Assembly (NCBI GenBank): GCA_963735595.1
Contig: CAVTLK010000005.1
Coordinates: 416,001 to 480,000, forward strand
Source of the DNA: an uncultured delta proteobacterium
GTDB taxonomy: Bacteria; Desulfobacterota; Zymogenia; Zymogenales; Zymogenaceae
DNA length: 64,000 nt
Direction: 5' to 3'
The notes beneath the pieces were generated by a model. It searched no databases, was not told the DNA's origin, and worked only from the letters and a program-made list of their open reading frames with translations. This document shows, one piece after another, positions 10,204 through 26,334 of the stretch. Within the stretch, counting starts at the first letter, position 1, and each line of letters begins with the position of its first letter. The translations under genes and the position numbers were made by a program.

Positions 10204-10351
10204 TTAGGGTGAAAGATAATTTTAAAATAAATCAAGACAACATGCAACACTTTTTTATTTTTCCGCGCGCCTTTTTGCCGCCGCTCTTACAGGCCGGAAG
10301 CTACCGGTACGGGCGGTGGCGCGTCGGCACGTATGATATTGGCCTCGGCGC

Positions 10352-10380
10352 TTGAATTACCGCCGGTCCTGGGGTATACT
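10352..10380 (+). promoter_or_regulatory. sigma70 promoter upstream of glpD
   Basis: TTGAAT-17-TATACT. Confidence 0.55.
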
Positions 10381-10476
10381 ATAGGACAGACGCACGGGCG
10401 GTCCCACCGATTGGGTGGTCTGGCTGATAGGACCCCGGCGCCGAAATCTCCATTAACCGGTTCAAGCGAGGCGGCA

Positions 10477-12151
10477 ATGATACGAGACGTTAAACAGATG
10501 AGCGAGCGTCACTACGACCTGATCATCATCGGCGGCGGCATCACCGGCGCGGCGGTGGCCTGGGACGCGAGCCTGCGCGGGCTCTCCGTGGCGATGTTCG
10601 AAAAGGACGATTTTGCCCACGCGACCAGCGCCGCGACCAGCAAGCTGATCCACGGCGGGCTGCGTTACCTCAAGAACTTCGAGCTGGGCCTCGTGCGCGA
10701 GTCGCTGGCGGAGCGGCGGATCATGGAGATAATCACGCCGCACTTCGTCCACCCGATCCCCTTTATCGTCCCGCTCTACGGCCACGGGATGGAGAGCCGC
10801 CTCCCGTTCCAGGCGGCGCTCTCGGTCTACGACCTGCTCGCCTACGACAAGGAAGACCTCAAGGACAAGGACAAGCGCATCAAGAACCACAGCATCATAT
10901 CGGAAGGCCAGGTCAAGAAGCTCCTGCCGGGCGTCCACACCCACGGCCTCAACGCGGGGGCCGTCTATTACGACTGCCAGATGAGCTGCCCGGAGCGCCA
11001 CGTGCTGGACTTCGTGGCGTCGGCGGCAGACTACGGGGCGGAAGTGGCAAATTACGCCTTAGTTGTCGATATCCTCAAGAACCGCAGCTCCGTGGTCGGG
11101 GTGCGGATCAGGGACCTGACCGACGGCGCCGAATACGAGATCATGGGGCGGGTGGTCATCAACGTCACCGGGCCCTGGGGGGATATCACGCTGGGGATGC
11201 TGCACCGCAAAGACGTGGAAAAACGGCTCATCCGCTCCAAGGGGATACACCTGATCACCCGCTCGCTGACCACGGAATACGGCGCCGTGCTCAGGACCAG
11301 GGACGGGCGGCACTTTTTCATCATCCCGTGGCGGGGGATGTCCCTCATCGGGACCACCGACCGCCTCTACAAGGGCGACCCCGACCATTTCAAGGTCTCC
11401 GAGGAGGATATCCAGGGCCTGGTGGACGACACCAACGAGAACTTCCCCGGCGCAAAGCTCAAGCGCAGCGACGTGCACTATTTTTACGGGGGGCTCAGGC
11501 CCATCGTGGAAAAGGACACCGATATCGACGTCTACGACGCCTCGCGTAAATACGAGATCTACGACCACGAGAAAGACGACAACGTCAAGGGGATCATCAC
11601 GGTCATCGGCGGCAAATACACCACGTCGCGAAACCTCGCCCGGCAGGTCGTGGACATGATCTACACCAAGCTGAAGCAGGAGCCGGCCGAGTGCCTGACC
11701 GACACGACCCCGCTCTACGACGGGGCGACCGGGCCGCTGCGCCGCTATCTCGATAAGGAACTGAAGAAGCACGCCCGGCAGTATAAGGCCGAGGTTATGG
11801 AGAACCTGATCTACCAGTACGGCACGGAGCACGGCAGGGTGCTCTCGGTGGCCGAGAAGGACGAATCGCTCAAGGAAAAGGTGGCCGACAGGAAGGCCGG
11901 ACATCATGGCCGAGGTGAGCTACGCCGTGACCGACGAGATGGCTTTACATCTCGACGACGTGATCTTCCGCAGGACGGGCATGGGCACCATCGGCAACCC
12001 CGGGGATGCGGCGCTCAAACGGTGCGCGGATTTGATGGGGCGGCTGTTGGGCTGGAGCGCGGAGCAGAAGAAAAAGGAGATCGCCTGGGTGAAGACCCAT
12101 TTCGTGCCCATCAAGAAGGACGGGGAGATACCGCCGATAAAGGACGTGTGA
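10477..12151 (+). CDS. glpD: FAD-dependent glycerol-3-phosphate dehydrogenase family (indel near 11895)
   Basis: IGGGITG, ATSKLIHGGLRYL, GGKYTT; C-terminal AEVSYAVTDEMALHLDDVIFRRT is in a shifted frame. Confidence 0.9.
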
Positions 12152-12237
12152 GGGGGTAGGGGAGAGGAGGGGTGTTGCGGCGCTTATTCTCTTGCGTGGC
12201 AAAGGATTTTACATTTTCCATGCCGTAAATCCCCACT

Positions 12238-12398
12238 CGTTATTACGAGCCGCCTGAAAGGCGGCGCGGCAATCTCGTCGATGATCACTCGCGAAGCGGG
12301 GCGATCACTCTGTAGATCAACGTATTAAAAGAGCCGCGCCCTTGCCCCACCCGCACCGATGAGATTGCTTCGGTCGCCGAGGCTCCCTCGCAATGACG
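12238..12398. repeat. Nested palindromic REP-like element, copy 1 (gene-less)
   Basis: Ends CGTTATTACGAG / CTCGCAATGACG; inner GCAATCTCGTCGATG / CACCGATGAGATTGC. Confidence 0.9.
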
Positions 12399-12473
12399 GA
12401 TATGATTTGTCACGCTGAACCGTAACCGGTTAAGTCAAGTCACTCCACTGTACCTTCGCAGCCGTACCTCACT

Positions 12474-12628
12474 CGTCGTTGCGAGCCCCCGGAGGGGGTG
12501 CGGCAATCTCATCGGTGATCGCACGCGAAGCGGAGCGATCACTCCGTAAATCACGCGGTAAAAAACCACCCCTATGCCTACCCGCACCGATGAGATTGCT
12601 TCAGTCGTTACACTCCCTCGCAATGACG
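12474..12628. repeat. Nested palindromic REP-like element, copy 2 (gene-less)
   Basis: Ends CGTCGTTGCGAG / CTCGCAATGACG; perfect inner GCAATCTCATCGGTG / CACCGATGAGATTGC. Confidence 0.9.
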
Positions 12629-12696
12629 GGTATGGCTTTTCTGTATAGACCATATCGTAATAAGTCCGGGACCCTTTTACCAGATAGAACCTCACT

Positions 12697-13180
12697 CGTC
12701 ATTGCGAGGAGGCCGACAGGCCGACGCGGCAATCTCATAGGTGATTGCGAGCGAAGCGACGCGATCACTCCTCAATATAAGTCGTCGGAGAGATCGCGCC
12801 ATTCGGGATTGAGGCTATCGATCAACTCCTCTTTTTTCTTCCTCGAGCCGCCCTTGATCCGCTTTTCTCTCAGTATTGCGGTTTCGGCCGTCGGGAATGT
12901 CTCGCAGTAGACGAGTTTCGAGACGCGATACTTCGCGGTAAAGCCCGGGTTTATCCCTTCTTTATGCTCCTGGACACGCCGTGTTATGTTATTTGTGATT
13001 CCGGTATAGAGGACGGTGCTGCTATTATTCGTCATGATGTAGACGTAGAATTGCCTTGCCATTGGTTTTTACCCGGGAGTCTTAAAATCGGAGCAACGTC
13101 AGGTTTTTTTACTGAGCCTACGCTCTTTGCCACCCGCACCGAGGAGATTGCTTCGGTCGCTTAGCTCCCTCGCAACGACG
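12697..13180. mobile_element. REP-like element copy 3 enclosing a GIY-YIG gene (putative autonomous element)
   Basis: Left arm 12697-12771 and right arm 13131-13180 match copies 1 and 2 and bracket the nuclease gene. Mobility is inferred. Confidence 0.6.
12772..13062 (-). CDS. Small stand-alone GIY-YIG endonuclease (UPF0213/YhbQ-like)
   Basis: FYVYIM...LYTGIT, RRVQEH, AILREKRIK, NPEWRDL; catalytic Tyr/Arg/His/Glu are present. Confidence 0.95.
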   Translation of the reverse strand: MARQFYVYIMTNNSSTVLYTGITNNITRRVQEHKEGINPGFTAKYRVSKLVYCETFPTAETAILREKRIKGGSRKKKEELIDSLNPEWRDLSDDLY

Positions 13181-13224
13181 GGATCGGGCGTTGCCCAGTA
13201 CCATGTGATCTAATGAACCGGTAG

Positions 13225-14388
13225 TCACTTAATATCCCCCTCCCCAAATCCCTTCAACTGCTCAAGCACGAATTTTCTGATCTCGCCCGCTTTCGGGTAG
13301 CCTTTCAGGGCGTCTTTGGGGTGGTATTCCTTTAAGAGCGGTACCGCCTTTCCCCCGCAGTCGCACGTGGGTTTCTCTCCCCGCGGCACCGTGATGTGCC
13401 GGTTGCACTTCTCACACCGGTAGGTGTCCTTCCTCCCCGATTTCTTGCCCCGCTTTGCGAAGGGTTTTCCCTCTATATCCACGATATCAAACGAGAAATC
13501 GACGGTGGTGGCGCTCGATATCGACGTCCCCACGCCGTAGGAATCGCACAGCGGGTTCAGCTCTTTAATCGAATACTCGTCCAGCCCGCCGCTTGCCAAG
13601 AGCTTCACGTGGGAGAAACCGCGCAGGTTCAGCTCCCAGCGCACCTCCGCGAGTATTTCCTTGAAGTTCCCCCTGCGGGAACCGGGGGTATCGAGCCTGA
13701 CGCCGAAGAGGTCCTTCCCCAGCGCCTCGGCCACACTGACCGCCTCGAACTTCTCGTCGTTGAACGTATCAATCAGCACGATCCGGTTGACGGCCCTGTC
13801 GATGATCTCGTTAAACGAGGTCGCCGCCTCCACCGTATCGCCTATTAACAGAATCAGCGCATGCGGCATCGTGCCGGTGGGGGGGAGTTCCAACAGCTCG
13901 GCCGAGGCCACGGAGCTGACGCCGTCGCACCCGCCGACGTAGGCGGCCCGGTCGATCATCGGGGCGATAGCCGGGTGCATCCGGCGCGCGCCGAAGGAGA
14001 GCAGCGGCCGGTGCCCGGCGGACACCCGGCAGCGCGCGGCCATGGTGGCGATCCCCGTGGCCTGGCATAAAAACCCGAGAATCGCCGTCTCGTGGACGCC
14101 GAAGTCGGTATATTCGCCCTCGATCTCGAGGACCGGCTCTCCCGGATAGAATATCGACCCCTCGGGCAGCGCCCTGATCGTCACGTCGTGGATCGACAGG
14201 AGGTCAAGCACCTCCTCCAGCCCGCAGAAGACCCCCCACTCCCAGTTCCTCGGGAAGCCCTTGAGGAAGACCTCGGCGGCCACACGGCGTTTGATCTTCT
14301 TCGCATCGAGGACCTGCCTGGTACGGACGAAATAGATATCGGTGACCTTGCCCTGCCTGATCTCTTCTTCGGTGAGCGTATAAAACAT
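13225..14388 (-). CDS. pncB: Nicotinate phosphoribosyltransferase (archaeal/Thermoplasma-like subgroup)
   Basis: TDIYF, SFGARR.HP, GTMPHA, GVRLDTPGSRRG, C-terminal Cys cluster. Confidence 0.9.
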   Translation of the reverse strand: MFYTLTEEEIRQGKVTDIYFVRTRQVLDAKKIKRRVAAEVFLKGFPRNWEWGVFCGLEEVLDLLSIHDVTIRALPEGSIFYPGEPVLEIEGEYTDFGVHETAILGFLCQATGIATMAARCRVSAGHRPLLSFGARRMHPAIAPMIDRAAYVGGCDGVSSVASAELLELPPTGTMPHALILLIGDTVEAATSFNEIIDRAVNRIVLIDTFNDEKFEAVSVAEALGKDLFGVRLDTPGSRRGNFKEILAEVRWELNLRGFSHVKLLASGGLDEYSIKELNPLCDSYGVGTSISSATTVDFSFDIVDIEGKPFAKRGKKSGRKDTYRCEKCNRHITVPRGEKPTCDCGGKAVPLLKEYHPKDALKGYPKAGEIRKFVLEQLKGFGEGDIK

Positions 14389-25924: not shown

Positions 25925-26334
25925 GATTGATATCGTCATTGCGAGCCGCCGAAGGCGGCGCGGCAATCCCGGACGTTGTTCCAAAAGGGCCTATACGGCA
26001 CCAGGCATGATTAGTACGGGGAGGCGTTTTTCGCGGCCGATGAATACCGATTGATATCGTCATTGCGAGCCGCCGAAGGCGGCGCGGCAATCCCGGACGT
26101 TGTGCCAAAAGGGCCTATACGGCACCAGGCATGATTAGTACGGGGAGGCGTTTTTCGCGGCCGATGAATACCGATTGATATCGTCATTGCGAGCCGCCGA
26201 AGGCGGCGCGGCAATCCCGGACGTTGTTCCAAAAGGGCCTATACGGCACCAGGCATGATTAGTACGGGGAGGCGTTTTTCGCGGCCGATGAATACCGATT
26301 GATATCGTCATTGCGAGCCGCCGAAGGCGGCGCG
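25908..26334. repeat. 124-bp tandem array (~3.4 copies) carrying the REP-like left arm
   Basis: Units start at 25908, 26032, 26156, 26280; one substitution seen (GTTCC/GTGCC); each contains CGTCATTGCGAGCCGCCGAAGGCGGCGCG. Confidence 0.97.

Follow-up and report, generated by a model that had tools for sequence, protein, structure and literature searches.

A region between two genes of an uncultured delta proteobacterium of the Zymogenaceae holds three adjacent copies of an inverted repeat, one of which encloses a gene for a small GIY-YIG nuclease. This raises the question of what the nuclease has to do with the repeat around it, and how such repeats spread. The region lies in a 64,000-nucleotide stretch of DNA, hereafter the window. 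A preliminary description of the window saw an autonomous element next to gene-less derivatives, with the nuclease recognizing the folded DNA or RNA and spreading the repeat. As a whole, that interpretation is partly supported by the analysis reported here.

CGTC-tagged REPs, in families CGTC-1 to CGTC-4, were described by Di Nocera, De Gregorio and Rocco in 2013; in the available text of that paper no transposase gene is flanked by CGTC repeats (PMC3733652). How these repeats spread has been a question since then, and a 2025 paper on Ssn nucleases goes, as far as its available text extends, only to proposing a link (PMC11893778). The preliminary description held that no enzyme had been established for CGTC repeats; in that 2025 paper, however, Chenal et al. 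(Nat Commun) describe the Ssn family, with the same architecture and the same hypothesis. In the parts of the paper available, Ssn proteins are single-domain GIY-YIG enzymes (cd10448) encoded by genes with CGTC-tagged hairpins at their flanks. Their cleavage, a few bases upstream of the tag, is confined to the forward strand of the repeat and to its single-stranded form. Cutting restricted to single strands is reported there for the enzymes of Neisseria and Wolbachia and for related ones. RNA is not cut by the Neisseria enzyme, transformation of Neisseria by repeat-bearing DNA falls about five-fold in the presence of SsnA, and the repeat-gene-repeat arrangement is proposed to be a domesticated mobile element akin to IS200/REP systems.

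Within the literature in reach, the kind of system found in the window was thus already published in 2025 as Ssn, and what is new is a subtype whose repeat is missed by the published motif. In our literature search, with subscription papers mostly outside its reach, only PMC11893778 tied GIY-YIG proteins to such repeats, and the matches listed for the arm sequence were unrelated by title.

Results

Organization of the locus

The array sits between a glpD-like gene on the plus strand and a convergent pncB-like gene on the minus strand, and the nuclease gene lies on the strand of the latter (Table 1). In each copy a CGTC-type tag comes first on the plus strand and its reverse complement stands at the end. 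The places and lengths first given for three elements with an outer 12-bp and an inner 15-bp inverted pair were confirmed, but not the perfect identity of the outer pair, which matches at 10 of 12 positions in copy 1 and at 11 of 12 in copies 2 and 3, and is perfect in none. The 'terminal repeat' of each copy is the start of a self-folding arm of 35-45 nt, and in all three copies a third hairpin, not listed at first, is part of the arm on the gene-3' side. Put at about 35-38 bp in the preliminary description, the fillers of copies 1 and 2 measure 39 and 36 nt with different anchors. The 96-aa GIY-YIG gene is intact, as first reported, and its TGA stop codon is followed directly by the conserved arm.

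Table 1. Features of the glpD-pncB intergenic region and its neighbours, in window positions.
Feature	Position	Strand	Description
Left neighbour, glpD-like FAD oxidoreductase	10333..12151	+	apparent frameshift near 11,894
Copy 1, gene-less inverted doublet	12238..12398	.	161 bp; left tag degenerate; 39-nt filler
Copy 1 third (inner) hairpin	12281..12308	+	subfamily-specific part of the arm
Spacer 1	12399..12473	.	75 bp; first part similar to spacer 2
Copy 2, gene-less inverted doublet	12474..12628	.	155 bp; 36-nt filler, related to the copy 1 filler
Copy 2 third (inner) hairpin	12515..12542	+	
Spacer 2	12629..12696	.	68 bp; similar spacer in relative G003, on the opposite side of the gene-bearing unit
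Copy 3, gene-bearing element	12697..13180	.	484 bp; tags outward
Copy 3 gene-3' arm	12697..12771	+	YGTC tag, compound hairpin to GCAATC, third hairpin 12741-12768 adjoining the stop codon
Nuclease gene, Ssn-type single-domain GIY-YIG	12772..13062	-	96 aa, K-G-G-S-R subtype
Leader, gene-5' arm to ATG	13063..13131	-	first 20 nt related to the fillers of copies 1 and 2
Copy 3 gene-5' arm	13132..13180	-	tag and compound hairpin on the minus strand
Right neighbour, pncB-like phosphoribosyltransferase	13225..14388	-	Pfam QRPTase domains; name from the preliminary description

Spacers 1 and 2 agree at 70% over 54 nt, arm end included, as expected from tandem duplication. The fillers of copies 1 and 2 are also related, with none of 1,000 shuffles scoring as well. 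The likeness claimed between the copy 1 filler and the sequence upstream of the gene holds for the first 20 nt of the filler when the alignment is anchored on the arm (p 0.0008, and p 0.02 for copy 2), but not in free local alignment, where the best same-strand cases were not significant (p 0.08-0.23). A reverse-strand likeness between the copy 2 filler and the gene leader, at p 0.02 among 16 tests, was taken as chance. The leader was also searched for a promoter consensus, and none was found.

The glpD-like gene shifts frame at 11,880-11,906, and its C-terminal domain resumes in another frame at 11906-12151. Since the gene is intact at this point in the related genome G001 and shifted further on in G003, the frameshift is probably an assembly error. 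In another relative, G002, the pncB-like gene (C6:82,743-83,905) was matched as two pieces, perhaps also through an assembly frameshift. Further along the window, at 25,934-26,220 (C5:441,934-442,220), a single arm and its flank occur three times head-to-tail with a 124-bp period; the matching site in G003 holds one arm.

The nuclease

The protein matches Pfam GIY-YIG (PF01541, E 9e-17) and no other Pfam domain, and at 96 aa it falls among single-domain proteins of <150 aa; no NCBIfam model matched above cut-off. Residues Y8, Y19, R29, H33, E66 and N85 are all present. The catalytic residues Y8, Y19 and E66, which were equated with Y6, Y17 and E64 of PMC11893778 (available text) by spacing and not by alignment, are kept in 90, 93 and 94 of 94 members of the subtype. 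Identity to a canonical Ssn homologue flanked by NTS repeats (L009), used as a stand-in for Neisseria SsnA, is 49% over 89 aa (E 2e-30). Given this identity and the retention of the catalytic residues, the protein belongs to a known kind of system.

Like SsnA of Neisseria meningitidis, as far as the available text describes it, the protein is a single domain of about 95 aa with the same spacing of Y6/Y17/E64, and its gene is flanked by tagged hairpins (GTCAT...AATC) that also occur in many gene-less genomic copies (PMC11893778). Five species with the present subtype are marked YES both for an SsnA homologue and for cd10448 in Supplementary Data 4 of that paper, although such an entry may stem from a paralogue; A. 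lacus, however, has a single match. To judge from the text, the four enzymes assayed there do not include one paired with the present repeat, and deletion derivatives and mobility assays are absent from the parts available.

The predicted structure (pLDDT 91) has the GIY-YIG fold and matches UPF0213 and Slx1; the PDB yielded only distant relatives (UPF0213, Slx1, UvrC) and no Ssn structure. In the prediction, residues 70-76 form the turn after the helix with the catalytic glutamate, and on this model the turn may act in repeat recognition.

Four related nuclease genes are present in the genome, each beside its own arm subfamily: two are enclosed, one lies between two whole doublets, and one is 5'-truncated with one arm. 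The gene between doublets (C2:850,236-850,897) stands outside any unit, its two neighbouring doublets have 51-nt fillers, and the same site is occupied in G001. It is a candidate for a domesticated, RAYT-like copy.

The arm repeat

Each arm consists of the tag, ATTGCGAG, a variable inner hairpin and then GCAATC (consensus form GTCATTGCGA...GCAATC), and folds into an outer stem of 5-6 bp, an internal loop and an inner hairpin of variable length. The exact pattern occurs 104 times in the genome and the reversed pattern never; given these counts and the DNA fold of copy 2 (z = -5.3), the arm is not a product of chance. Single arms fold weakly in the standard model (z -0.3 to -2.6). A looser pattern finds 172 arms, as against two for the control. 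A pyrimidine precedes GTC in 164 of the 172 and, among 186 arms of other phyla, in 91%; across phyla, conservation runs from this C or T to 2-3 bases past GCAATC. Among neighbouring arms within 450 bp of each other, 42 of 80 pairs are inverted with tags outward, and the doublet fillers cluster at 25-26, 36, 51, 57-60 and 67-68 nt, as in REPINs.

The sequence of the inner hairpin varies freely with its pairing kept (covariation). A stem of at least 3 bp is present in 54 of 70 distinct inner segments (shuffle mean 27, maximum 38), and the loops include the C(GNA)G triloop 17 times and the GNRA tetraloop six times, against shuffle means of 1.5 and 1.3. GNA triloops form stable DNA mini-hairpins, and their presence in the arm favours a role as single-stranded DNA. 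Action of the nuclease on folded RNA, which the preliminary description allowed, is therefore unlikely, the more so as the Neisseria enzyme ignores RNA according to the available text of PMC11893778.

Outer flanks of at least 15 nt are common to 49 of the 172 dispersed arms, and one flank is joined to differing inner hairpins; the shared flanks suggest that copying often extends beyond the tag. Many arms are preceded by a companion module, a small GC-rich hairpin with an AT-rich linker of ~25-40 nt, which gives BIME-like mosaics (for example at C2:530,012, C2:656,015 and C5:413,338). GTAG-type hairpin repeats also crowd intergenic regions that hold arms.

Similar repeats occur in Rickettsia and Bradyrhizobium, and the repeat itself may therefore have been named before. 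The arm has the unpaired CGTC/TGTC tag and the palindrome opening with A-T pairs that define a CGTC REP. It also shares with these REPs, as the available text presents them, the short tail, the intergenic position, the prevalence of inverted doublets and the lack of a flanked tyrosine transposase (PMC3733652). It differs from CGTC-1 to CGTC-4, which have an 8-9-bp stem and a 4-5-nt loop as judged from the description there, and six CGTC-2, -3 and -4 peptide rows of that paper gave no match to the arm frames. The short outer stem, internal loop and variable inner hairpin likewise set the arm apart from the NTS/SRM repeat of Ssn.

Protein subtype and repeat type

The pairing of protein and repeat was read from 104 loci picked by protein and not by flank, 24 of them from 41 genomes of the window's lineage and the others the best 80 of 590 from 185,579 species genomes; one distant protein misfiled by the motif rule was moved to the other group. 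Among these loci (the 24 plus the best 80 of 590), residues 70-76 predict the repeat type. Proteins with K-[GAD]-G-[SPN]-R (in short K-[GA]-G-S-R, residues 70-74), the subtype of the window, have the present arm at 71 of 73 loci, as against none of the 31 other GIY-YIG genes; the enrichment of these arms around close homologues, proposed at the outset as a check, is thus borne out. In the same set, K-G-W-x-R proteins have GTCAT(T/C)CTGA arms at 16 of 18 loci, and K-x-W-x-R-x-W proteins have NTS-like arms at six of eight. A short protein motif is matched to repeat type across many phyla. A profile score failed as a separator of subtypes, and the motifs were read from the loci instead.

The published SRM pattern was found in none of the 73 flanks of the present subtype versus seven of eight canonical flanks, and had no match at 12200-13250 of the window. 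As its flanks do not match that pattern, the subtype, with K-[GA]-G-S-R where NTS-flanked Ssn has K-x-W-x-R-x-W, is placed as an Ssn variant. The SRM pattern also matched none of 17 flanks of the K-G-W-x-R subtype (L005, L006, L037 and others). In the table of PMC11893778, as far as available, five species with the present subtype have SRM counts of 0.33-1.05-fold, at or below chance. Three of the five were scanned and carry 12, 20 and 76 copies of the arm versus none in controls, so the published SRM motif undercounts the system.

In a quick version of the protein tree, in which five of 97 branches are strong and which does not show each motif type as one clade, the motif types cluster (seven changes versus 26.7 when shuffled). 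The spread of the subtype is patchy over many phyla. One genome (G238; L159, L223-L229) has 12 Ssn-like genes, and the eight that were read represent several motif types, each with a different GTCAT-tagged repeat.

Whether the repeat tracks the gene was followed in 201 genomes of the Cytophagales, the order of Algoriphagus. Ssn-like genes were found in 62 of them (129 hits), and 90 hits were read, at least one per genome plus all hits of six repeat-bearing genomes without the subtype. The arm flanks 20 of 23 subtype genes versus one of 67 others. The expected tracking was seen in one direction: each of the 21 genomes with a subtype gene contains one or more exact repeats, and 18 contain at least five (17 of 20 without the centre genome), as against 11 of 180 genomes without the gene, a difference whose nominal p of 2e-15 is overstated because kin are not independent. 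In the other direction it was incomplete, as 11 of the 29 genomes with at least five repeats are without a subtype gene, including those with 133 (the richest), 58 and 51 copies. Either the repeat outlives the gene or the gene is unassembled in these genomes; most of the genomes are drafts, in which repeat-flanked genes may go unassembled. Closer to the window, all four genomes of its genus combine the gene with 44-104 arms. The subtype gene was found neither in six further genomes of the family, which hold 0-20 arms, nor in two more distant ones, which hold 19 and 22.

Layout and descent of the units

An arm core lies within 300 nt of the gene at each of the 94 subtype loci, and at 78 of them on either side. 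In 50 of these 78 the gene is enclosed with tags outward, where 25% would be expected, and the other layouts make up 28 of 78. The enclosed units are 368-570 bp long (median 412), and of 47 that were measured, 18 have a stop codon that overlaps the inner end of the arm or lies no more than one base from it. The preferred layout is therefore an enclosed gene with tags outward in a unit of about 410 bp.

The gene unit occupies the glpD-pncB site in three of the four species of the genus. It stands there alone in G002 and with one extra arm on the pncB side in G003; G001 has one gene-less doublet of another subfamily at the site, and two other genera keep glpD-pncB without any element. Relative to the gene unit, the spacer is placed towards glpD in the present genome and towards pncB in G003, which points to tandem duplication with gene loss from different copies. 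A second unit in G002, of the same arm subfamily and with 66% protein identity, lies at an unlinked site, which in the present genome holds an unrelated gene and no arm. Conversely, the second enclosed gene unit of the present genome (C5:408,477-408,975) is absent from the matching G003 site. Of 24 sites anchored along a 400-kb block that G003 also has, four are equal-length loose matches, and seven of the remaining 20 have arms in one genome and none in the other. Units have been gained or lost between related species.

That gene-less copies are derivatives of gene-bearing ones, as first described, is supported by the subfamily-specific arms they have in common and by one unit that keeps the tail of the gene. 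This unit (C5:373,188-373,403) ends in RPDLSEERF-stop, in register with the gene's WRDLSDDLY-stop. Its tail matches three of the genes at 20-22 of 33 nt, with none of 10,000 shuffles as good, and the fourth at nine, offset by an indel. As the last codons of the gene are kept in register, the unit is a remnant of a gene-bearing one, and at least one gene-less unit descends from a gene-bearing unit. This case was found only with arm anchoring; a free search for coding remnants in 41 gene-less fillers gave three marginal hits only (2-5 of 100 shuffles as good).

Discussion

The reading we favour, with a probability of about 0.6, is that an Ssn-type nuclease housed in inverted CGTC compound hairpins cuts ssDNA 5' of its own hairpin, and that host repair copies and reshuffles the units. 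Element-specific cleavage of ssDNA by this subtype is, by analogy with the known Ssn enzymes, highly probable. By homology, the enzyme would recognize the folded arm in ssDNA and cleave immediately 5' of the tag. With the tags facing outward, each strand would receive a single cut, immediately beyond the 5' end of the unit, whenever it is single-stranded, as at a replication fork, in incoming DNA or in a cruciform. To our knowledge, GIY-YIG enzymes are hydrolytic, form no covalent link to the donor and do not rejoin DNA, so movement would need host recombination or template switching. Host repair from the cut would copy the unit with a varying length of flank. Copying of this kind predicts tandem arrays, patchy replacements and no target duplication, all as seen here. 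Such cuts could also restrict the entry of foreign DNA, as they do in Neisseria.

Going further, the ~400-bp unit may be an autonomous mobile element that does without a transposase, its GIY-YIG nick leading to host-repair copying and REPIN-like doublets and its residues 70-77 setting the hairpin type. We put this forward tentatively, at somewhat less than even odds, and infer mobility of the unit from sequence comparison. That the nuclease spreads the repeat, as the preliminary description proposed, is likewise still an inference: target duplications and clean empty sites were not seen, and repeats persist where the gene was not found.

MITEs occur with autonomous IS partners, and as in such pairs the gene-bearing and gene-less units here have terminal inverted arms in common and include internal-deletion derivatives; unlike them, they have neither a DDE transposase nor a target-site duplication. 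With REPINs and RAYTs, as presented in the available text of Bertels and Rainey 2011 (PMC3116915), they share fixed-length inverted doublets and tandem clusters with repeated flanks. Excision reads were seen there for REPINs, whereas the present units are known from assembled sequence: among sequencing runs, no match covered more than 11% of the sequence words and no RNA run was listed, and the contigs examined came from relatives. As in REPtrons, described in the same available text, few enzyme genes serve many copies and each enzyme has its own repeat type; but the REPtron enzyme, RAYT, is an HUH tyrosine enzyme with GTAG repeats, while here the partner is a GIY-YIG protein and its gene lies inside one doublet.

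Among the alternatives, a domesticated host function survives best, though we consider it rather unlikely. The nuclease would then cut incoming or exposed ssDNA to limit recombination, and the repeats would spread by recombination, slippage and hitch-hiking. Consistent with this, SsnA reduces transformation about five-fold according to the available text of PMC11893778, a ComEC gene is present in this genome, repeats are kept where the nuclease gene was not found, three of the four species in the genus have the glpD-pncB unit in the same place, and another paralogue is common to G001. Moreover, the unit had no DNA match in 72,556 plasmids and the protein no close relative in 50,697 phage records, which hold distant GIY-YIG proteins at 38-44% only. 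ComEC, however, is common (10 of the 14 genomes used as controls). A selfish unit fits the tight enclosure with outward tags, in which the stop codon lies at the arm end in 18 of 47 units, and the patchy spread over many phyla, and a host function would leave the dispersed, subtype-specific repeat families unexplained.

It is improbable that the unit is a true minimal transposon, excised and reinserted by the GIY-YIG protein itself, or by it as a dimer on the folded element. The compact unit, the fixed-length gene-less doublets like those of REPINs, the sharp stop of cross-phylum conservation at the base before the tag and the occurrence of one subfamily at two G002 sites would all suit such a transposon. 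Against it, the longest direct repeat flanking a unit averages 1.9 nt, versus 2.1 nt in shuffles (43 units), and so gives no sign of a target-site duplication. Two other genera have no element between glpD and pncB, but none of the 24 sites anchored in the 400-kb block against G003 is cleanly empty, the neighbouring DNA being replaced too; as the nearest genome belongs to another species and is ~93% identical, old insertion sites may be blurred. The outer flanks shared by 49 of the 172 arms extend beyond the supposed ends, and one strand cannot be cut at both ends because it has a single forward tag. We also know of no joining activity for the GIY-YIG fold.

Still less probable is movement of the repeats by an IS200/RAYT (HUH) or other transposase with the nuclease as a passenger. 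The genome does have four Y1 (IS200/RAYT-type) genes, but an arm lies within 1.5 kb of none of them versus all four Ssn-type genes, so RAYT/IS200 genes do not account for the repeat in this genome. The longest ORFs in four wider tags-outward pairs (0.45-3.5 kb) are not transposase-like by eye, and the absence of transposase genes flanked by CGTC repeats in the available text of PMC3733652 agrees with this. One of the Y1 transposase genes (C4:58,769-59,113; L138) has three GTAG-starting repeats upstream and is RAYT-like. Least probable of all is that the doublets are mainly RNA elements, terminators or mRNA stabilizers of convergent genes beside which the nuclease gene lies incidentally. The array does sit between convergent genes, whole doublets fold strongly and six inner loops are GNRA, but an Rfam search identified no RNA family (a single miRNA hit was due to chance), terminator-like sites are no commoner than expected (1 versus 1.1), two other genera keep glpD-pncB without the element, and the pairing with one nuclease subtype would go unexplained.

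Beyond the Ssn system already described, the present work adds the correspondence of protein to repeat and comparative evidence for autonomous and derived units. The locus and its relatives form a test set, with a 96-aa enzyme, its own arms, gene-less sister units and paralogues with different arms, and the match of motif to repeat type offers new cutting specificities. If mobility fails, the protein would be an ordinary new subtype of a known family. If the unit is indeed a mobile element, it would be the mobilizer so far missing for CGTC REPs and would provide a natural code by which ssDNA nucleases could be re-targeted.
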